The position numbers were made by a program, and so were the translations under genes. The notes beneath the pieces are model-generated. The model did not search any database and was not told the DNA's origin. It worked only from the letters and a program-made list of their open reading frames with translations. 45,805 bases of DNA from Escherichia virus fEg-Eco19: sequence record NC_073314.1, one strand, 5' to 3'. How positions within the stretch are numbered: position 1 is the stretch's first letter; every line of letters begins with the position of its first letter. Below are positions 1 to 31,225 of this stretch, piece by piece.

Positions 1-68
1 TCACCAAACGCAACAATCAAAGCGACTATTGCAGGAGACGCAACAATACAAACACCAATAAAATTTAC

Positions 69-97
69 TTGCACACTAAGATATAATAGGCTACTAT
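69..97 (+). promoter_or_regulatory. sigma70-like promoter (TTGCAC-N17-TACTAT) with AATAG-N4-CTATT palindrome over the -10
   Basis: Read directly: TTGCAC, 17-nt spacer actaagatataataggc, TACTAT; ~30 nt upstream of ORF 129..653. Same architecture recurs near 10641-10669(-), 21039-21067(-), 44695-44723(+). Confidence 0.4.
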
Positions 98-128
98 TCA
101 TTTACACAAACGAGAGGAGAGACAGAAG

Positions 129-653
129 ATGAGTAACAAAAACGAAGTATTCGAGTACCTGATTGACCAGCTACGGCAGCAGGTAACTAGCAACCGGTGC
201 GAAGACCTGGCGCACGAGGTGTTGTCACTCAAGAATCAGTTACGTGATGCGTCGGCGCTGGTGGCTGAGTTACAGAAAGAACTTGATATCGCCAATAGCA
301 CCGTCGTTCGTTTGCGTAAAGAGATAGCTAAGTCTACCGGTGACATTGGAGAATACATCGATGCCACGGAGCAATCTGGTTGCCATAAGGAAGATACTCA
401 GTACAACGCCTGGAGGCCGCATTATGGTGCACGACAACCTGTTCCGGATGGGACTATGGTATTTATCCGGTATCGCAACGGGGAGGAGCCAAAACACAGT
501 GTAGCAGCGGAAAAGCGGTCGTGGATTTGGGATGGAACATACGCAGACATAGTGGAATACAAGATTGACACACAGGAATGTGAACATGACTATCGTTTGG
601 TTCTGTGGTGTAGCGACTTACAGCAGTGCTCTAAATGCGGGGAGATCAAATGA
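129..653 (+). CDS. hypothetical protein, N-terminal coiled coil, Cys/His-rich C-terminus
   Basis: 174-aa ORF with ATG start and GAGAGGAGAG RBS-like stretch upstream; no recognisable catalytic motif. Confidence 0.5.
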   Translation: MSNKNEVFEYLIDQLRQQVTSNRCEDLAHEVLSLKNQLRDASALVAELQKELDIANSTVVRLRKEIAKSTGDIGEYIDATEQSGCHKEDTQYNAWRPHYGARQPVPDGTMVFIRYRNGEEPKHSVAAEKRSWIWDGTYADIVEYKIDTQECEHDYRLVLWCSDLQQCSKCGEIK

Positions 654-855
654 CCAGCATATTATTTATCTGGGTATTGTCCGCAGGCCAGATGCAACTA
701 GCGGCATCAGAAACGTTTTATTCGATGGAGGCGTGCCAGTCAGCGGCACGCGCCGCAGAGAACGCGCACTTTCTGTTTCAGGGTGACAAGCCCAACGACT
801 CAGAGGTACGCGCTATCTGCTCACCTAAGCGACTTGGTAAACAGGAGAAGTGATT

Positions 856-1038
856 ATGGTACAGAGATATAGCTACAACCCAATGTTCGGGTTTACTCCT
901 GATGTTGAAGGCGGGTTAGTGCTTTACGAAGACTACGCGAAACTTGAAGCCGAGTTACAGAAATACAAAGACCAGTTCCCGGATTACGTCGAGTGCGCGA
1001 ATTGCGGGTCAATTACACATGTGGAAGGGGTGGAGTGA
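856..1038 (+). CDS. small hypothetical protein (tandem paralog A)
   Basis: Starts MVQRY; shares MVQRY...Y..Y.KLEA.L with the next ORF; C-terminal CxxC. Confidence 0.4.
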   Translation: MVQRYSYNPMFGFTPDVEGGLVLYEDYAKLEAELQKYKDQFPDYVECANCGSITHVEGVE

Positions 1039-1232
1039 TGGTACAGAGGTATGAGGTGGAAAAATGGGGCCTGCCAGAGCCTGAGATGGCTGAGTACGCA
1101 TACGGCGATTATGTAGAATACGACGCTTATCTTAAACTGGAAGCAAAGTTACGTGAATTCGCTGAACAGGTAATGTACGAACCTTGTTCGAAAGTTACAG
1201 AAGAAATGGCCCGCGAGATTCTCGGAATATGA
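1038..1232 (+). CDS. small hypothetical protein (tandem paralog B)
   Basis: Starts MVQRY at a TGATG stop/start overlap with the preceding ORF. Confidence 0.4.
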   Translation: MVQRYEVEKWGLPEPEMAEYAYGDYVEYDAYLKLEAKLREFAEQVMYEPCSKVTEEMAREILGI

Positions 1233-1522
1233 GCCTTGCAACTGACATCCTGAAACGAAGCGGCCTTGCGCCGCTGTCACCGAGAACGAACACCCGAATA
1301 TACAAGCGCCGCCGTAACGCGCTGTACCCTGAGATTCAAGCCAGACGCAAAGCAGTCCGCGCCTGCGGATTCCAGAACGGGAAGGCCGTGAATCTCGGTG
1401 AGTTTAAAACAAAGGAACGTGCAGCAATCGCTAATCGGTTATTTAATTACTGGAAATCGCTGGGGTACGATGATATTCCGACGAAACCGCAGAGACGACA
1501 ATACATCTGGAGACATAAATGA
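1229..1522 (+). CDS. hypothetical basic protein
   Basis: ATGA overlap with upstream stop; internal ATG of track ORF 1184..1522; Arg/Lys-rich. Confidence 0.4.
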   Translation: MSLATDILKRSGLAPLSPRTNTRIYKRRRNALYPEIQARRKAVRACGFQNGKAVNLGEFKTKERAAIANRLFNYWKSLGYDDIPTKPQRRQYIWRHK

Positions 1523-1956
1523 CTACTATCGCGTTTGACGGAAAGACAATGGCTTGTGACACGCGGGTATCGGGAAGCCATACCTACAACACAGACACAA
1601 AGATTTACGAGAATGAGTTTGTTGTTATTGGGGTGGATGGAGATGCGGGGGTTGGTATCCTTTTAGTGAAGGACGACGGTATTTTAGTGCCTAAGCATTA
1701 TGATTTTGATTTCTCTGCTTTGGTGTGGGTTAAAGACATCGAAACGTTGTGCAAGGTAGAGTTCTATAAATCGTGGGATTGTGCCCTTAGTTCGGTTATT
1801 CCAATTGCGGACAGTTTTGCCGCCGTTGGTTCTGGTGCGCCTTATGCATTAGCGGCTATGGAATGTGGCTATTCGGCACATGGTGGCGTGGCGGTGGCGT
1901 CGAAGTTCGACACTAACACCGGCGGCAAGATTATTACCAAACAACTATTAGGATAA
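1519..1956 (+). CDS. HslV/proteasome beta-subunit-like Ntn hydrolase (short form)
   Basis: N-terminus MTTIAFDG (Thr directly after Met) and C-terminal AVGSGAPYALAAMECG resemble HslV TTIVSV and AIGSGGPYAQAAARAL; 145 aa, shorter than bacterial HslV. Confidence 0.5.
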   Translation: MTTIAFDGKTMACDTRVSGSHTYNTDTKIYENEFVVIGVDGDAGVGILLVKDDGILVPKHYDFDFSALVWVKDIETLCKVEFYKSWDCALSSVIPIADSFAAVGSGAPYALAAMECGYSAHGGVAVASKFDTNTGGKIITKQLLG

Positions 1957-2015
1957 TTCCTACCCGTGGTATCCTCCAGTTACTGCATACTTAACACGCA
2001 CCTGGAGGATTCATC

Positions 2016-2324
2016 TTGGATAAATTTACTGAAACAGTGACGGGGTGGCTTCTCGCTGCCGCACTGGTCGGGGGATTGGTCGGACTAAGACAACATAAAA
2101 AGTCTATATCCGGGCCGATTGACGGACTGGTATTTCTCCTCACCGGCTTCGCGTGTGCCATTTTCGGTGCACCTCTTGCTGCTCAATGGTTCGGTATTAC
2201 CGGTGAGCGCGAGATAGCTGGCCTCGGATTCATCATTGCCATTCTCTGGATGCCTATCTATTCCCGCCTTTCTGGCATCGTATCGGGCGGCAATATTGCC
2301 CGCCCAGGAGGACCGCATGACTGA
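2016..2324 (+). CDS. holin-like membrane protein (3 predicted TM helices)
   Basis: Three hydrophobic stretches; immediately upstream of endolysin. Confidence 0.5.
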   Translation: MDKFTETVTGWLLAAALVGGLVGLRQHKKSISGPIDGLVFLLTGFACAIFGAPLAAQWFGITGEREIAGLGFIIAILWMPIYSRLSGIVSGGNIARPGGPHD

Positions 2325-2589
2325 GCTATTCTGGTTTGTCGTAATGCTGGCAATGGGCGCTTCGTCCCTGTTCAACGTGTATAATGAACGCGTGGACGAC
2401 GGGCTGTTCGGGCGTGTTCTCTATATCCTGACTGCTATCGTCTGTGCCGCCGGATGTATCCACCTGTTACAGGGCAGCATGTCACCAACGCTGCCTGAGA
2501 CATTAATCACATTAGTCGCGCTGCGCCAGATTCGCCAGGCGTGGCTGTCATACGGAGGACATAAGCGTGTCTCGAAATATTTCAGATAA
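2317..2589 (+). CDS. small membrane protein (second holin or antiholin candidate)
   Basis: Internal ATG of track ORF 2236..2589 (MTELFWFVVMLAMG...); two hydrophobic helices; overlaps endolysin start. Confidence 0.4.
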   Translation: MTELFWFVVMLAMGASSLFNVYNERVDDGLFGRVLYILTAIVCAAGCIHLLQGSMSPTLPETLITLVALRQIRQAWLSYGGHKRVSKYFR

Positions 2590-3055
2590 TGGATTGCATT
2601 TCTGTGCCGCGTTCGAGGGATTCCGCGGAACTGCGTATCGTGCTACGCCGAATGAGAAGTACCTGACTATTGGTTATGGTCACTACGGGCCAGACGTAAC
2701 ACCAGGTAAGACCATCACACCAGGACAGGGCTTGCTGTTACTGAATCGCGATATGGCTAAGGCTGTAGCTGCTGTTGACGCGGCAGCACACCATTCGCTT
2801 ACACAGGCACAGTTCGACGCCGTGTGTGACCTGGTCTATAACGCCGGTGCAGGTGTGATTGCAGCTACTACTGGCACGGGTAAGGCGCTGCGTTCTGGTG
2901 ATGTTGCGACGCTACGGGCTAAACTGGTGCTGTTTATCAACCAGAACGGCAAACCGCTACTGGGCCTGCGTCGCCGTACTGCAGGTCGTCTGGCGCTGTT
3001 CGACGGTAAACCATGGCAGGAGGCGGAGGCTATTGGACGCGCGGTGAAAGGTTGA
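2567..3055 (+). CDS. endolysin, T4-lysozyme-like (GH24) muramidase
   Basis: FEGFRGTAYRATPNEKYLTIGYGHYG matches the GH24 catalytic Glu / TIGYGH region; GTG start. Confidence 0.8.
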   Translation: MSRNISDNGLHFCAAFEGFRGTAYRATPNEKYLTIGYGHYGPDVTPGKTITPGQGLLLLNRDMAKAVAAVDAAAHHSLTQAQFDAVCDLVYNAGAGVIAATTGTGKALRSGDVATLRAKLVLFINQNGKPLLGLRRRTAGRLALFDGKPWQEAEAIGRAVKG

Positions 3056-3241
3056 TAGACTAACGGCAACAGAAGATTAAACAACATTGAGGGCACCCCG
3101 GGTATCATCACCCTCACGGACCTGTAACAGGGTCGAGCCAAAGTGCGGTAACGCGTGCCGGAGAATCTCTGTTGACACCTAAGACTAATCCGACGATACT
3201 TAAATCACCTCCTGCTCCATCCCTCTGCTCTCCAGTTTTAT

Positions 3242-3272
3242 CCCGGCCCTGACCCAGCCGGGATTTTTTTTA
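3242..3272 (+). terminator. rho-independent terminator
   Basis: CCCGGC...GCCGGG stem followed by a run of 8 T. Confidence 0.6.
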
Positions 3273-3293
3273 TCTATTTTCGGTAATGACTAG

Positions 3294-3322
3294 TTGACTA
3301 TTACCACCGACCCTATTATATT
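3294..3322 (+). promoter_or_regulatory. sigma70-like promoter TTGACT-N17-TATATT
   Basis: Read directly; ~40 nt upstream of ORF 3363. Confidence 0.45.
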
Positions 3323-3362
3323 TACTCCATCGACAACGAGAACGGAGTAGAGAGAGAGAGAA

Positions 3363-3551
3363 ATGACGACTAAGATTAAGCATACCGATAAATGGGGTGA
3401 TTTCCTGGAGATAGAGAAGTGCAGGGATGGTTCATTACTTATAACTTGCACCGACGGTGATAGTGACGAATTAGCTAATGTTAATGTGAGCCTGGATGAT
3501 TTTATGTCTATTGTTGAGCAGGTTATGGCGTTTTATGGAGATGTTAAATGA
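3363..3551 (+). CDS. small hypothetical protein
   Basis: 62-aa ORF, ATG start, purine-rich (AG)n leader. Confidence 0.45.
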   Translation: MTTKIKHTDKWGDFLEIEKCRDGSLLITCTDGDSDELANVNVSLDDFMSIVEQVMAFYGDVK

Positions 3552-3697
3552 AAATCACAGATACCGAAGCATTCAAAGATGCACAACTGATGGCACGCAT
3601 CGCCGTTAGCAACCTGAGCAACAGCATTCCGGCGGATGCGTTCTGGTTCGCTGCTATGCAGACACTGAAAGCAGCTTATGCAGGAGATAAGAAATGA
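3548..3697 (+). CDS. small hypothetical protein (49 aa)
   Basis: ATGA overlap with upstream stop; below the track size cutoff, translated by eye. Confidence 0.3.
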   Translation: MKITDTEAFKDAQLMARIAVSNLSNSIPADAFWFAAMQTLKAAYAGDKK

Positions 3698-3849
3698 GCG
3701 AACAAGGTCAAGTAAGCCAGCCATTACGAGTAGGCCGTAAAGTAAATCACACCCCATTCCCGACACGTGAGGAACTGATGAAACGAAACAGTTTCCCGGG
3801 GCCGGACAAGAACAAGTATCTCAATCGCATGTGGGGAGAGAAGAAATGA
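3694..3849 (+). CDS. small hypothetical protein (51 aa)
   Basis: ATGA overlap chain; translated by eye. Confidence 0.3.
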   Translation: MSEQGQVSQPLRVGRKVNHTPFPTREELMKRNSFPGPDKNKYLNRMWGEKK

Positions 3850-4034
3850 CCGACCGTGAATACGAAAAGATGATGGTAGAGGCCGCAAACGGCAAAACGC
3901 AGAATGCTAAAGCTGAAATAGGGATACTAGATAGGCGGATAGAAGAACAGGCCCGATACCTTGACCGCCTTATGGAGCGCCGCCGTGAACTGATTAACCG
4001 CTTCAACCTGAACAAAGGTGACGCCAATGCCTAA
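3846..4034 (+). CDS. small hypothetical protein, coiled coil
   Basis: Internal ATG of track ORF 3831..4034 (MTDREYEKMM...). Confidence 0.4.
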   Translation: MTDREYEKMMVEAANGKTQNAKAEIGILDRRIEEQARYLDRLMERRRELINRFNLNKGDANA

Positions 4035-4266
4035 AATCACAATCGCATTACTAGAGCGCCGTATTCTGGTGCTTGAGTCAGAGAAACAGACGTTAGGTGG
4101 GCAACTGTCGATTAACGGTGGATTTCAACTGGAGGCGTTTAAGTTGCTACTTGAGCGCATGAAAGCGGACGAAAAGCCTTGCGCGCACGACTACTACATG
4201 CATTTAGTTGATGGGGTACATCGAGTCACATGCTTAAAATGTGGTAAAGCGTATGAAAGCGCCTGA
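4027..4266 (+). CDS. small hypothetical protein with C-terminal zinc-ribbon-like motif
   Basis: Internal ATG of track ORF 4018..4266; CxH...CxxC at C-terminus. Confidence 0.4.
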   Translation: MPKITIALLERRILVLESEKQTLGGQLSINGGFQLEAFKLLLERMKADEKPCAHDYYMHLVDGVHRVTCLKCGKAYESA

Positions 4267-4435
4267 GCCAGTAGTTATTGACGGCGTCCTGTGGAAACCT
4301 TACTCGGTTAACCACATTGACGCCGACGGGAAGAAGTTCAGCTTCTACATTTTTGCAATTAGCCGTGAGCACGCCGCCTGTGTGGTTGATGATATACGAG
4401 AAACGGCGTGGCTCGGTGATGAGATAGTGGGGTGA
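4253..4435 (+). CDS. small hypothetical protein
   Basis: Internal ATG of track ORF 4241..4435 (track start is GTG). Confidence 0.35.
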   Translation: MKAPEPVVIDGVLWKPYSVNHIDADGKKFSFYIFAISREHAACVVDDIRETAWLGDEIVG

Positions 4436-4522
4436 GAGTATGAGTCTTCAGGTTGTTATAAGTCTGGTGGGTCTTAGTTACTTCATCGGGCTGTTGGTTG
4501 GATCTCTGTGGGGTAGATACTA

Positions 4523-4693
4523 ATGTTCAATGATATTAACGCGGCAATCGAAGAAGCAATCTGGCGTCGTTACAACGGTGAGCAACAGCGCCACTTTTGC
4601 CTGGTGCAACGCGGTAACATGGTAGCCGTAGTGCAGGACCGCGATAACAAATATCCTAATGCGATGTGGACAACGAGGAATTTCTTAGGATGA
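4523..4693 (+). CDS. small hypothetical protein (56 aa)
   Basis: Translated by eye; stop overlaps next start. Confidence 0.3.
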   Translation: MFNDINAAIEEAIWRRYNGEQQRHFCLVQRGNMVAVVQDRDNKYPNAMWTTRNFLG

Positions 4694-4926
4694 TTACCAG
4701 CATTCCGAACCTGATTAAAGAATTCGGCACGATGGCTGAGACATGCCGACAAACAGGCCTCAACGAAATGACGATTGCTAAGTACAGCAAAGACGTAAAA
4801 TGCGAGCGACATGTAATTTATAACAACCGTCTGATGACGCACGTTAAGACAAGCCCGGTGTTATTCACGCGCCGCGGTATCACTAAAACAGAGCAACGCA
4901 TCGCTAAAGAGGAGAGTGGGGTATGA
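4690..4926 (+). CDS. small hypothetical protein, possible HTH
   Basis: Internal ATG of track ORF 4666..4926; segment TMAETCRQTGLNEMTIAKY looks HTH-like. Confidence 0.35.
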   Translation: MITSIPNLIKEFGTMAETCRQTGLNEMTIAKYSKDVKCERHVIYNNRLMTHVKTSPVLFTRRGITKTEQRIAKEESGV

Positions 4927-5078
4927 AAAAGTTAACTATCTACTGGAAAACAGGCGCTACGTCAGAACTCGATGTTTTCAGCGTAACGCAGTGCGAGAAG
5001 TTCTGGTATGCCGAAACATTCAACGGTGAAGTTAGAATCCCAATCGCACTGGTAGACGGCGGCGATATAACCGAATAA
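4923..5078 (+). CDS. small hypothetical protein (51 aa)
   Basis: ATGA overlap; translated by eye. Confidence 0.3.
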   Translation: MKKLTIYWKTGATSELDVFSVTQCEKFWYAETFNGEVRIPIALVDGGDITE

Positions 5079-5088
5079 CCCAACCACA

Positions 5089-5113
5089 AGCCCTCTACGG
5101 AGGGCTTTTCTGT
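5089..5113 (+). terminator. rho-independent terminator
   Basis: AGCCCTC-tacg-GAGGGCT followed by TTTTCTGT. Confidence 0.6.
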
Positions 5114-5205
5114 ACATCCCGCCCAATCACCTTATATAATCCCTTTAGACGCGTAGGGCGCGTCTGGTGCGCTCTGATGGTCAGACGCATATGCAAGGGG
5201 ATTCT

Positions 5206-5751
5206 ATGAAGCTGAAACTTAAGCAGCCATCGCCAGAGGTGGTGCAAGCTGCACATGAAGAAGCTGTTAGCGCAAACCGTCGCCGTAAACGACCGCGCGG
5301 TAAACAGAGCCTTTATCAATCATCCCGTAATTCCGCCGCGTTGTGGGACCCGGACTATTGCGACGCGTTAATCGAGTTCTTCGACCGCACGTCATGGGAG
5401 CTTGTGCCTACGTCCAAGGGTGATGAACGCCCGCTGATTCAGGACAAACCGCCGTCACTGGCCCGCTTTGCCTTACGCATCGGCGTCACTATCCCGATTA
5501 TTAAGCTGTGGCTGCGCGAGATTCCCGCATTCGCAGAAGCATGGGAGACAGCGCAGGCATTGGAAGAGGCATACTTCACTGAGACAGGAGCCGCTGGCAT
5601 CTCTGCTACGTTTGCCGCAGCTAAGCTGGGCCTTAGCAAAGAGAAACCAGTTGAATCCACCGAAGAAACAGCACCGACTGAGATTATTTTCAGTGTAGCG
5701 GAGCCTGTAGGTAAAATCGTAACAACGAACATGGGCGAGGTAGAGGAATGA
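5206..5751 (+). CDS. terminase small subunit (by position)
   Basis: Internal ATG (MKLKLKQ...) with AAGGGG RBS; immediately upstream of and overlapping terminase large subunit; basic N-terminal region. Confidence 0.5.
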   Translation: MKLKLKQPSPEVVQAAHEEAVSANRRRKRPRGKQSLYQSSRNSAALWDPDYCDALIEFFDRTSWELVPTSKGDERPLIQDKPPSLARFALRIGVTIPIIKLWLREIPAFAEAWETAQALEEAYFTETGAAGISATFAAAKLGLSKEKPVESTEETAPTEIIFSVAEPVGKIVTTNMGEVEE

Positions 5752-6998
5752 GTATTCAGTTATCTGCCCCGCAGGCGCTGTTCCTGAATTGCGATAACAA
5801 ATACAAAGCCTACGTCGGCGGCTTCGGCAGCGGAAAGACATTTGTCGGCTGTCTCGACCTGCTTACGTTCATGCTCAAGCACCCTGGTACGCGCCTCGGA
5901 TACTTCGGCCCAACATATCCGGCTATCCGTGACATCTTCTACCCAACATTCGAGGAAGCGGCTAATTTACTCGGTCTCGATGTGCTGGTTAAATCCGGCG
6001 ACAAAGAAGTCGTGGTTACCCGCGGTAAGACGGTGCTCGGGACTGTTATCTGCCGCTCGATGGATAACCCCGGTTCTATCGTCGGCTTCAAAATCGCCGC
6101 TGCGGTCGTTGATGAACTGGACGTATTGAGCCGTGAAAAAGCTGAACTGGCGTGGAACAAAATCGTCGCCCGTATGCGTCTTGTTATCCCTGGCGTAATT
6201 AACCACATCTCTGTCACCACGACGCCAGAAGGGTTCAAGTTCGTTTACTCCAAGTTCAAAGAGAATCCGACACCGAGTTACTCAATGGTGCAGGCCTCCA
6301 CACACGAGAACGCGCGATTCCTGCCGCCGGATTACATTAGCTCGCTGACCGAGACTTACCCAGCGCAACTGATTAACGCGTACCTGAATGGGGAGTTCGT
6401 TAACCTGACATCCGGCAGCGTCTACTACGCCTACGACCGACGTAAGCATCGCAGCAAAGAGACAATCCAACCGGGCGACACGCTGTACATCGGGCAGGAC
6501 TTCAACGTTACGAAGAACGCCAGCGCTGTGTATGTGCAACGTAAAGACGGCTGGCACGCGGTAGCAGAACTTAAGGGCCTGTTCGATACGCCAGATACCG
6601 TGCGTGTGATTACCGAGAAGTGGAAGTCGCAAGGCCACCGCATCGTCGTTTACCCGGACGCCAGCGGCAAGAACCGCAAAACCAACTCGGCATCAATCTC
6701 CGATATCGCCTTACTACAGCAGGCCGGTTTTGATGTTCGCGCTAAATCCGCCAACCCACCGGTTAAAGACCGTGTTTTAGCCGTGAATACCGCGCTGGAA
6801 AAAGGTAAGCTGTGGGTTAACGACCGCTTATGCCCTGAGATAGCGAAGACACTGGAGCAGCAGGCATATGATGATAACGGAGAGCCTGCTAAAGACGGTG
6901 TCATTGACCATATGGCGGATGCTCTCGGCTATCCTGTAGTTTATGAGATGCCGGTGGTTAAGCCAGTAATCAACATCCCGGTGACTTTCGCACTTTAA
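5748..6998 (+). CDS. terL: terminase large subunit
   Basis: Walker A GGFGSGKTF near N-terminus; 416 aa; followed by portal. Confidence 0.8.
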   Translation: MSIQLSAPQALFLNCDNKYKAYVGGFGSGKTFVGCLDLLTFMLKHPGTRLGYFGPTYPAIRDIFYPTFEEAANLLGLDVLVKSGDKEVVVTRGKTVLGTVICRSMDNPGSIVGFKIAAAVVDELDVLSREKAELAWNKIVARMRLVIPGVINHISVTTTPEGFKFVYSKFKENPTPSYSMVQASTHENARFLPPDYISSLTETYPAQLINAYLNGEFVNLTSGSVYYAYDRRKHRSKETIQPGDTLYIGQDFNVTKNASAVYVQRKDGWHAVAELKGLFDTPDTVRVITEKWKSQGHRIVVYPDASGKNRKTNSASISDIALLQQAGFDVRAKSANPPVKDRVLAVNTALEKGKLWVNDRLCPEIAKTLEQQAYDDNGEPAKDGVIDHMADALGYPVVYEMPVVKPVINIPVTFAL

Positions 6999-28888: not shown

Positions 28889-31225
28889 ATGTCAAGCGGA
28901 TGCGGTGACGTTTTAAGCCTGGCGGATTTACAGACCGCCAAGAAACACCAGATTTTCGAAGCCGAGGTTATCACCGGCAAATCCGGCGGTGTTGCAGGTG
29001 GCGCCGATATTGATTACGCGACAAATGCCGTTACAGGGCAGACCCAAAAGACGTTACCAGCCGTGTTGCGTGACGCTGGTTTTTCTCCGGTGTCATGGGA
29101 CTTTTCCACTGGTGGTACGTTAACCGCTAATGACCGCGACAAAGTGGTGTATGACCCTGTAAGCAAGACGTGGTACTCGTATACCGGGACTCTGCCGGTT
29201 GTTGTCCCCGCATCGTTTAACCCGGTTGGTAACGCTAACTGGAAGCCGCAGACTGACCCGGATTTGCGCAATGATTTATCCAGCACAGACAATGCGACAT
29301 TAGGTGATGCCATGGTCGGCGTCCGACAACCATTTACCGACGCTGTCGGCAGGACGCAACACGATAAAAATAGAGAAGTAGTTTCCGTTCTGGACTTCTA
29401 TTTAGGTACTGACCCTGATTACACAAACGCCCTTAACCGAGCGCTTACAGCTAGTAACGGGGTGCTTGTACCGCAAGGGGAGTATAGTACGTCGCTACTC
29501 TCCCACCCGACATGCTCTCTATTCGGAACAGGGGGTGGGGTTTTAAAACAATCAAACGATTCTGGAAACCACTTAATCTTTGATAAACCTGCAGGAGGGC
29601 TACTTAGCACCCTGAGTATTGTAGGAAATAAGGCAACGGACTTCACACAAGGTCAGCAGGTTTCCTTCGCCGGTGGGCAGGACGTTACTATTAAAGGTAT
29701 TGATTTTAAAAATGCAAAGGGAACTGGATTTAGTTTAATAGCATACCCTAGTGATGAGGGTCCGTCTGGATACATTGTAAGCGGCATACGGGGCGACTAC
29801 TCCGGGTATGCTACAAATAAAACAGCGGGGTGCGTGCTGTTTGAGTCCGCAAGTAATACTATAATCAACGATGTTATCGCCCGAAACTACCCCAAATTCG
29901 GGGCGGTTGAGTTGAAAACAGATGCTAAATGTAATGTTGTTAGTGGCGTCATTGGGCAAAGCTGTCAGCACGTTGTTTATAATGGCACCGGGACGACCAA
30001 TGCCCCTAGCAGTAATATTATCAGTAATGTTGTTGCTAATAACGCTAAGTATGCCGCTGTGGTCGCCGGCAAGGGTTCAGGTAATCTGGTGACAAATGTT
30101 GTAGCTGATTACTCCTCCTCCGAGGCCACGCAAGCACACGGCGTTACATTACAAGGCAACTATAATGCCGCTGATAATATTCTAATGGTTGGGTGCAGCG
30201 GAACTAATAGTTTAGGGCAAACGCAAACCGCGACTTCTATTAGGTTTTTAGACAGAGCTAGTAATAACTACGCATCGGTTTTCCCTATGTATAGTGCTTC
30301 CGGGGTTGTTACACTAGAGACAGGGACTACCCGTAACTTTGTGGAAGTAAAGCACCCTGGACCCAAGAACAGTCTTCTTAGTTCACTATCTACTATAACC
30401 GGGGTCTCTAGCATTGATGGTACTACCACCAGTAACGTGGTACACGCCCCCGCTATAGGACAATACATAGGGTCCATGTCCGGTAGGTTTGAGTGGTTCA
30501 CTAAGTATATAGATACTTCTGCATTGCCTTTTGTGACAGCTGATAAATTCAGACTAATTTCCGATGGGGCTACATCTTTGGCTATTGGCGGAGGTACGAC
30601 CTCTCAGATAAAATTACTCACATCTGATGGTACTTCTCGAACTATTTCTCTGGTTAATGGTAATTTACGCTTAGCCTCTGACGCATCGGCGTATATTCAA
30701 ATAGCCCCGACGGCTATTACACCATCCAGTGCAAACACCGTCGCTATCGGGTCGGCAAGTCGCGCTTTGTCCGGCGGATTCACTCAAACAGCGTTTACGG
30801 TTACGTCTGACGAGAGAGCCAAGACACTACCCCTGGAATTAACTGACGCTATGTTAGACGCTTGGGCTGAAGTTAATTTAGTTCAATATAAGTACCTGGA
30901 TAGGGTTGCAGAGAAGGGGGAGGATGCAGCTAGGTGGCACTTTGGAGTAGTAGCCCAACGAGCAATTGAGGCGTTTACCCGGCACGGGTTGGACGCGACT
31001 AAGTACGGTTTCCTGTGCTACGATAAGTGGGAAGCGTCTCCGGAAATTATTGATGAGGAATCTGGGGAAGTATTAACAAAAGCTACGGCGGCAGGGGAGC
31101 GGTATGGTATTCGTTATGATGAGGTATTGATATTAGAGGCTGCGTTACAGCGACGTAAAGCAGCTCAGTTAGAGAAAAGGATTATAGCGCTTGAGACATT
31201 AGTGGCTACCCTGACAAACAGTTAA
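28889..31225 (+). CDS. tailspike/tail fibre with beta-helix core and C-terminal intramolecular chaperone (S74-like) domain
   Basis: Central repeats (NIISNVVANNAKYAAVVAGKGSGNLVTNVVAD) typical of right-handed beta-helix; C-terminus ERAKTLP...WHFGVVAQ...ILEAALQRRKAAQLEKRIIALE resembles the autocleaving chaperone domain of endosialidase-type spikes. Confidence 0.65.
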   Translation: MSSGCGDVLSLADLQTAKKHQIFEAEVITGKSGGVAGGADIDYATNAVTGQTQKTLPAVLRDAGFSPVSWDFSTGGTLTANDRDKVVYDPVSKTWYSYTGTLPVVVPASFNPVGNANWKPQTDPDLRNDLSSTDNATLGDAMVGVRQPFTDAVGRTQHDKNREVVSVLDFYLGTDPDYTNALNRALTASNGVLVPQGEYSTSLLSHPTCSLFGTGGGVLKQSNDSGNHLIFDKPAGGLLSTLSIVGNKATDFTQGQQVSFAGGQDVTIKGIDFKNAKGTGFSLIAYPSDEGPSGYIVSGIRGDYSGYATNKTAGCVLFESASNTIINDVIARNYPKFGAVELKTDAKCNVVSGVIGQSCQHVVYNGTGTTNAPSSNIISNVVANNAKYAAVVAGKGSGNLVTNVVADYSSSEATQAHGVTLQGNYNAADNILMVGCSGTNSLGQTQTATSIRFLDRASNNYASVFPMYSASGVVTLETGTTRNFVEVKHPGPKNSLLSSLSTITGVSSIDGTTTSNVVHAPAIGQYIGSMSGRFEWFTKYIDTSALPFVTADKFRLISDGATSLAIGGGTTSQIKLLTSDGTSRTISLVNGNLRLASDASAYIQIAPTAITPSSANTVAIGSASRALSGGFTQTAFTVTSDERAKTLPLELTDAMLDAWAEVNLVQYKYLDRVAEKGEDAARWHFGVVAQRAIEAFTRHGLDATKYGFLCYDKWEASPEIIDEESGEVLTKATAAGERYGIRYDEVLILEAALQRRKAAQLEKRIIALETLVATLTNS

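Follow-up and report, generated by a model that had tools for sequence, protein, structure and literature searches.

A minimal proteasome-like hydrolase of the PPH family, with a complete predicted active site and no helix H2, encoded next to the lysis cassette of Escherichia virus fEg-Eco19

At positions 1519..1956 (+) of Escherichia virus fEg-Eco19 (NC_073314.1; the whole stretch of 45,805 nucleotides analysed is called the window here) lies a gene for a 145-residue protein that we assign to PPH, a phage-encoded family of the proteasome-like N-terminal nucleophile (Ntn) hydrolase superfamily. The source genome is that of a Kagunavirus-like siphophage, as judged by a megablast of positions 1000-3100, which matched 156 phage records, all of them Guernseyvirinae, the best being Kagunavirus phages of E. 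coli at ~85-90% nucleotide identity. A preliminary description of this DNA had singled out the gene as coding for a short HslV/proteasome-beta-like protein in which Thr directly follows the initiator Met. The gene and its start signals are as follows.

1519..1956 (+), PPH coding sequence: 145 amino acids (aa) plus TAA stop (1954-1956); minimal proteasome-like Ntn hydrolase
1509..1512 (+), Shine-Dalgarno (SD) GGAG, 6 nt 5' of the PPH ATG; read from sequence
1522..1524 (+), codon of Thr2, the predicted N-terminal nucleophile (Thr1 after Met removal); from conservation and alignment to HslV Thr1

The open reading frame (ORF) translates exactly as had been described, with MTTIAFDG at the N-terminus and AAVGSGAPYALAAMECG inside. 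Since an in-frame TAA (1516-1518), read from the sequence, is the codon directly 5' of the ATG, the frame has no 5' extension and Thr is residue 2 by necessity. Start and stop codons are interlocked as ATGA, the upstream gene ending in a TGA at 1520-1522 and PPH opening with its ATG at 1519-1521. The start assignment is unambiguous, and the concern that the catalytic Thr might be lost on the correct start falls away, as Thr2 follows the sole possible ATG. With Thr in second place, methionine aminopeptidase is expected to take off Met1, as for HslV.

The relationship to proteasome-like proteins is faint when the protein is searched as a single sequence. The Pfam Proteasome model PF00227 scored 14.8 bits, below its gathering score of 22.4; NCBIfam models matched at E 0.02-0.08, and phmmer against PDB returned the Betaproteobacteria proteasome homologue (BPH), HslV and a beta subunit at E 0.5-0.9, over the GSG segment only. 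A 7-sequence profile was still marginal (E 6e-4), and the decisive signal came only from a diverse alignment of 133 sequences, 26-43% identical to the query except for one close orthologue at 73%. Against PDB this profile matched 168 proteasome-like chains, with HslV at 6.2e-14, proteasome beta5 at 2.2e-11 and BPH at 1.2e-10, and hhalign against E. coli HslV gave a probability of 97.6% and an E of 4.4e-12 at ~21% identity. With the same alignment AlphaFold2 produced a confident model (predicted local distance difference test, pLDDT, 91.7; predicted template modelling score, pTM, 0.87), which has the alpha-beta-beta-alpha Ntn sandwich by which the proteasome-like superfamily is recognized. PF00227 itself matches 69 of the 133 diverse members at E<=0.01 (best 3e-11); the sub-cutoff score of the single sequence reflects under-coverage of the PPH branch by the Pfam model and is no argument against homology. 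The short HslV/proteasome-beta-like Ntn hydrolase of the preliminary description is thus backed by profile, profile-profile and fold evidence, and the profile search proposed there as a check returned a significant match. From these comparisons we regard the protein as a genuine member of the superfamily, with HslV, BPH and the beta subunits at about equal distance from it.

The gene had been thought not to be a standard phage gene. It is, however, already known rather than novel, belonging to the PPH family of Fuchs, Alva & Lupas 2021 (PMC8665760) and to PHROG 1040, and it is annotated in many GenBank phage records. A virus-specific library gave the match to PHROG 1040 'peptidase HslV family' at E 5.6e-33 over residues 1-142; the assignment to PPH was made on the family's description, with this PHROG membership serving as a proxy for direct comparison with WP_042125023.1, the PPH reference sequence of that study. 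The PPH are described as HslV/BPH-like proteins of group I with no propeptide and no S12/H5, encoded by phages, and the absence of helix H2 is peculiar to PPH and RPC (PMC8665760). Every feature of that description which we examined is present here, and by description no meaningful difference was seen: ~140 residues, Met-Thr without a propeptide, the full catalytic set, H1, H3, H4 and the S1-S11 core kept, no H2, no C-terminal S12/H5, and a home in tailed phages and prophages, mainly of Proteobacteria. Membership of both the superfamily and PPH is, in our view, close to certain.

The family is widely distributed. Full-length orthologues were found by tblastn of the protein in 300 phage records, including Escherichia phage vB_VIPECOMC04 (96% identity, already annotated in GenBank) and many Salmonella Jerseyvirus genomes (~65% identity), under the labels 'peptidase HslV family protein', 'HslV family peptidase', 'ATP-dependent protease', 'protease' and 'hypothetical protein'. 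When distant family members served as tblastn queries against annotated phages, the family was found in 455 phage records of many genera. When 1.84 billion cluster representatives were searched exhaustively with a profile, 7,433 matched at E<=1e-3, which puts the family at no fewer clusters than that, and 1,528 of them reached E<=1e-10; these relatives are nearly all of 135-165 aa and aligned from residue 1, and 134 of the 150 best start with MTT. Full-text literature searching for experimental work on PPH or phage HslV-like proteins returned only genome notes that repeat the annotation.

The predicted active site comprises the Thr2 codon given above and the following elements, in which residue numbers count Met1 and percentages refer to 138 diverse family members.

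1558..1560 (+), Asp14 codon, equivalent to Asp17 of HslV/proteasome (hhalign register); 99%, invariant in close orthologues
1600..1602 (+), Lys28 codon, equivalent to Lys33 (hhalign register); 99%, invariant in close orthologues
1630..1641 (+), G38-V-D-G41, GxxG oxyanion-hole strand; Gly38 94%, Gly41 100%
1828..1836 (+), G104-S105-G106, counterpart of GSGG in HslV by alignment; Gly104 and Gly106 100%, Ser105 88% (Thr in 9%)
1909..1926 (+), D131-T-N-T134-G-G (hhalign register); D 96%, T/S 94%, Gly135 85%, Gly136 76%

Residue 2, aligned to HslV Thr1, is Thr in 98% and Ser in 2% of the members, and Thr in 120 of 121 close orthologues; Thr3 is conserved in 94% and Ala110 in 100%. In the hhalign register Gly41 corresponds to HslV Gly45 and proteasome Gly47, and Ser105 to HslV Ser124 and proteasome Ser129. 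The D131-x-x-T134-G-G motif corresponds to Asp166-x-x-Ser169-Gly-Gly of the proteasome beta subunits, with Asp standing where E. coli HslV has Cys159. The 20S proteasome beta subunits (PF00227, MEROPS T1A) therefore share with the PPH protein both the fold and the full Thr1/Asp17/Lys33/Gly47/Ser129/Asp166/Ser169 network including D-x-x-S/T-G-G; they differ from it in having a propeptide, H2, H5 and an alpha-subunit partner. Of the 145 positions, no more than 35 are invariant in 120 clusters of close Guernseyvirinae orthologues, and the invariant ones include Asp14, Lys28, Gly41, Gly104, Gly106 and Asp131.

Such strong selection on the whole catalytic network of an otherwise fast-evolving protein favours an enzyme and disfavours an inert decoy. 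The preliminary description had suggested a decoy, and small phage inhibitors of host proteases exist. Such a decoy would be a catalytically irrelevant or poison subunit that sequesters HslU or co-assembles with host HslV. This is hard to square with near-invariant catalytic residues, every catalytic position being under strong purifying selection despite a mean column identity of only ~20% across the family. Furthermore, the elements that would contact HslU are the very parts missing from the protein, and the low identity to HslV makes co-assembly unlikely, so that we consider a decoy very improbable. Of the options first put forward, a putative active protease or hydrolase is the best supported.

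The missing parts lie in the middle of the protein, at one short loop.

1672..1710 (+), residues 52-64, a short loop of pLDDT 68-83 in the AlphaFold2 model, replacing the end of H1 and helix H2 (hhalign gap)

It had been noted that the protein is ~30 aa shorter than bacterial HslV and lacks part of the central region, and this holds: it has 145 aa against 176 in E. coli HslV, and both hhalign and AlphaFold place the gap at H2 and the end of H1. The model has a single helix (43-51) where HslV and the proteasome have the H1/H2 pair, keeps H3 (107-115), H4 (120-130) and the beta core, and ends with a strand at 138-142; the hhalign gap removes HslV residues ~60 to 90. In HslV, Arg86, Arg89 and Lys90 form a basic pore cluster that rearranges on HslU binding and whose mutation cripples activity (PMC5777263), and the pocket for the C-terminal tail of HslU is made of Phe54, Phe57, Ala79, Lys80 and Gln114 (PMC6429459). 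By hhalign and AlphaFold2, Arg86/Arg89/Lys90 and Ala79/Lys80 fall within the segment that is absent from the PPH protein. The equivalents of Phe54, Phe57 and Gln114 are Ile47, Val50 and Pro95, at positions that are variable across the 138 members. The PPH protein is thus 31 residues shorter than HslV (ClpQ) and lacks H2, the basic cluster and the residues of the tail pocket, and its gene has no hslU partner; no AAA+ unfoldase gene adjoins PPH in the window, in annotated relatives or in six other phage and metagenomic contexts. BPH (PDB 5ovs, 5ovu) is likewise larger (~185-200 aa) and forms tetradecamers, with H2 and a long acidic pore loop, neither of which is found here.

These differences bear on the suggestion that the protein interacts with host HslU. 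PPH rings could dock on host HslU, or on another AAA+ protein such as ClpX, and divert ATP-dependent degradation to targets that benefit the phage. This would be in keeping with HslV being one of the two closest solved relatives, with the requirement of HslV for HslU (PMC6429459), with the infection of Proteobacteria, which have HslUV, by most PPH phages, and with the frequent GenBank label 'ATP-dependent protease'. However, H2, Arg86/Arg89/Lys90 and Ala79/Lys80 are missing, what is left of the pocket varies within the family, and BPH, which is related just as closely, failed to pull down HslU (PMC5777263). HslV proper was rejected as an identity: the equivalog models TIGR03692 and NF003964, which require 157.75 and 137 bits, returned only 12.6 and 13.6, a shortfall of more than 120 bits. 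There is also a homologue in a Microbacterium phage (hhalign 99.3%, E 2e-20), which has an actinobacterial host, and for the Actinobacteria the family survey lists no HslV in its Table 1 (PMC8665760). Since H2 is missing and a homologue occurs in an actinobacterial phage, an obligate partnership with HslU is unlikely. Docking on HslU is disfavoured, and we consider the redirection of host unfoldases by PPH an unlikely function.

The gene lies between a run of small genes and the lysis cassette, in the following setting.

1229..1522 (+), upstream gene, 97 aa, phrog_9632, function unknown; overlaps the PPH start
1521..1938 (+), segment of 418 nt absent in K1G-type Kagunaviruses; from megablast and the K1G junction alignment
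1971..2010 (+), intergenic hairpin in the 59-nt spacer, arms 1971-1979 and 2002-2010, 9 bp; minimum free energy -22.5 kcal/mol, z -3.06
2016-2324 (+), first holin, phrog_2359, downstream of PPH
2317-2589 (+), second holin, phrog_2508, downstream of PPH
2567-3055 (+), lysozyme-type endolysin, PHROG 33703/7; Pfam Phage_lysozyme 1.3e-26

Comparison with other Kagunaviruses indicates that PPH can be done without. In many of them, including the type phages K1G and K1ind2, megablast matched positions 1000-3100 in two pieces with ~420 bp missing, and the annotation of K1G has the holin directly after the upstream gene. At the K1G junction (585-660 in the K1G locus) the sequence runs ...CATAAAT joined to AAACCGTTATTAAGATAA-TTCCTACCC (CATAAAT/AAAC), in which the first bases of the PPH start run straight into its last 18 nt, present in diverged form; this corresponds to a clean deletion of positions 1521-1938. 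Since this 3' remnant of ~18 nt is still present in K1G-type phages, the loss is secondary, and the alignments indicate that PPH is ancestral in Guernseyvirinae and was lost in the K1G type. By a rough count it is retained in ~35 of ~114 non-Salmonella records that share the region, or about one third of the E. coli-infecting relatives. The holins, the endolysin and the intergenic hairpin have all been retained by K1G-type phages, and since cassette and hairpin are intact in phages that lack PPH, the gene is needless for lysis or virion assembly. Within the Kagunavirus group it is, on this genomic comparison, a dispensable accessory gene.

The same comparison bears on a role in capsid maturation or as a scaffold protease. 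One might argue for it since the annotation of the closest relative includes a scaffold and a major head protein but no prohead protease. Heads that use a scaffold and no protease are common, however, and PPH is not part of the head module, has been lost from viable K1G-type phages and has a genomic context that differs between phage groups. A prohead protease was rejected on position and dispensability, and we rate such a role as the least probable of all.

The hairpin downstream of PPH, with arms AUCCUCCAG...CUGGAGGAU, contains in its 3' arm the holin SD GGAGG (2004-2008), with which an upstream anti-SD is paired, and neither arm differs in vB_VIPECOMC04 or in K1G. In Jerseyvirus Ent3 the same spot (~3480-3515 in the Ent3 locus) is taken by a different GC hairpin followed by a T-run, which is terminator-like. 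The hairpin in the window could serve the translational control of the holin or could be a weak terminator. Together with the Jerseyvirus hairpin and T-run it suggests that PPH stands at the end of the upstream unit and that lysis is separately controlled: PPH probably closes the upstream small-gene operon, and it probably lies outside the adjacent lysis cassette. Five small ORFs of unknown function precede it (phrog_6094, 3766, 29624, one unmatched, and 9632), and the gene order around PPH is the same in Kagunavirus vB_VIPECOMC04 and Jerseyvirus Ent3. The placing of PPH in an early region by the preliminary description fits in terms of position only, PPH being the last of the small-ORF run. 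A promoter and terminator consensus scan of positions 1-6000 gave no excess over shuffled sequence and no site that would define a transcription unit.

A part in the regulation of lysis, in which PPH would process a holin or antiholin, the endolysin or a spanin to time lysis, would account for its position directly upstream of the cassette in Guernseyvirinae. The adjacency is conserved in Kagunavirus and Jerseyvirus, and elsewhere an M15 peptidase lies ~500 bp upstream in one metagenomic contig and a SleB-like gene 1.8 kb upstream in roseophage DSS3_MAL1. Against this, K1G-type phages without PPH retain the holins, the endolysin and the hairpin, the terminator-like hairpin separates PPH from the holin in Jerseyvirus, and PPH lies away from lysis genes in Jedunavirus, phage EL, Aurca01 and VnaP. 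We consider a lysis regulator improbable. A general association of PPH with the lysis cassette was likewise rejected, the adjacency being confined to Guernseyvirinae and PPH being deleted in K1G-type phages with an intact cassette.

Within the cassette itself, the first holin apparently starts at TTG (2016-2018), the earliest start in the ORF and the one annotated also in relatives, and the holin, holin and endolysin genes overlap (2317-2324, 2567-2589), suggesting tight translational coupling. Further small ORFs and then the terminase follow the endolysin. In vB_VIPECOMC04 two 'Rz-like spanin' coding sequences, with an HNH endonuclease gene between them, are found beside the scaffold gene (29824-30888), far from the holin/endolysin cassette, so that the lysis genes there are split over two loci. 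Several HNH/homing endonucleases are scattered along that genome.

Outside Guernseyvirinae the position of PPH is not conserved, and across the contexts compared no gene recurs as its partner. In Jedunavirus it occupies a small divergent island within the tail module, in Pseudomonas phage Aurca01 the end of a Nin-like region, and in phage EL it adjoins the PhuZ tubulin; in roseophages it stands beside a zeta-toxin-like or polynucleotide kinase gene, and in a metagenomic contig ~500 bp downstream of a weak Peptidase_M15_4 match. A search with PADLOC gave no match, and thus no link to known defence systems. In Vibrio phage VnaP the homologue lies among miscellaneous genes and has 277 aa, the gene (3501-4334) coding for a PPH-like domain and a C-terminal extension of ~130 aa; BFVD matches of 260-280 aa are built likewise. 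Such homologues of ~277 aa account for the 277-position profile of PHROG 1040 and are possibly of the 'RPC' type of Fuchs et al. In Microbacterium phage Cassita (ON526969.1, 2190-2235) the GTG start annotated for gene 16, a 'protease', aligns to PPH position 11 and leaves out the catalytic Thr. The in-frame sequence upstream, AAGGAGAG-TAATC-ATC-ACT-ACC-ATT-GCG, reads I-T-T-I-A and is preceded by a strong SD, which points to initiation at a non-canonical ATC, or to N-terminal processing, and to an annotated start that is wrong.

Taken together, these observations lead us to propose that PPH is an HslU-independent N-terminal-threonine hydrolase acting as an accessory factor. Host methionine aminopeptidase would remove Met1, exposing Thr as a free N-terminal nucleophile, to be activated by Asp14 and Lys28; the oxyanion hole would come from Gly41, while Ser105, Asp131 and Thr134 would support the active site as in proteasome beta subunits. 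The enzyme would then hydrolyse peptide bonds of some host or phage protein or peptide, independently of HslU, and its gene would be transcribed as the last of the small-ORF operon before the lysis cassette. Since H2, which carries the basic pore cluster of HslV and part of the pocket for the HslU tail, is absent, a peptide-bond hydrolase that is independent of HslU is the most likely reading.

Several points weigh against this proposal. BPH, its closest relative in structure, has a complete active site and yet cleaved neither casein nor standard peptide substrates (PMC5777263), so that an intact site is no guarantee of general protease activity, and isolated proteasome subunits are inactive outside the ring (PMC8665760). 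A tandem three-copy AlphaFold run on a 16-sequence alignment gave a pTM of 0.51 and a pLDDT of 69; this pTM is neither the ~0.3 to be expected for independent domains nor that of a confident assembly. It is possible that a different mode of binding HslU, or another unfoldase, is compatible with the loss of the pocket, and literature searching turned up no biochemical or genetic data for any PPH. Because BPH is inert, proteasome subunits need assembly and the three-copy model gave no confident assembly, we hold the full mechanism to be only moderately probable.

The inertness of BPH leads to the reading that PPH is no general protease at all, acting instead as a sequence-specific transpeptidase or ligase like connectase, or as an amidohydrolase whose substrate is an amide other than a protein, for instance a signalling molecule or a peptide derived from peptidoglycan. 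Connectase, an archaeal proteasome-like protein ligase (PDB 6zw0, 8jtu), shares with the PPH protein the proteasome-like fold with reduced apical helices, and is a precedent for a non-ring, substrate-specific enzyme. We regard this alternative as fairly unlikely. Somewhat easier to entertain, and put forward here tentatively, is that PPH is an unfoldase-independent and possibly non-ring threonine enzyme, a protease or transpeptidase, specific for one substrate, which would act as a dispensable host-takeover or counter-defence factor against a single host protein.

As a discovery the gene has little value, since PPH received its name and was modelled as a family in 2021, forms a PHROG of its own and carries a label in hundreds of phage genomes. 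The question it raises is what the proteasome superfamily's sole widespread branch in viruses does, and here three features narrow the experiments. The elements that HslV uses for binding HslU are exactly the parts that PPH lacks, and its catalytic residues form a network of proteasome-beta type (Asp166/Ser169-like) that is strongly selected. The clean presence/absence polymorphism of Kagunavirus furthermore amounts to a set of natural knock-outs, with an almost isogenic pair of phages with and without PPH available for target finding. Should PPH turn out to be a minimal threonine protease that works on its own against a defined target, it would represent the smallest working form of this fold and possibly a useful tool enzyme.

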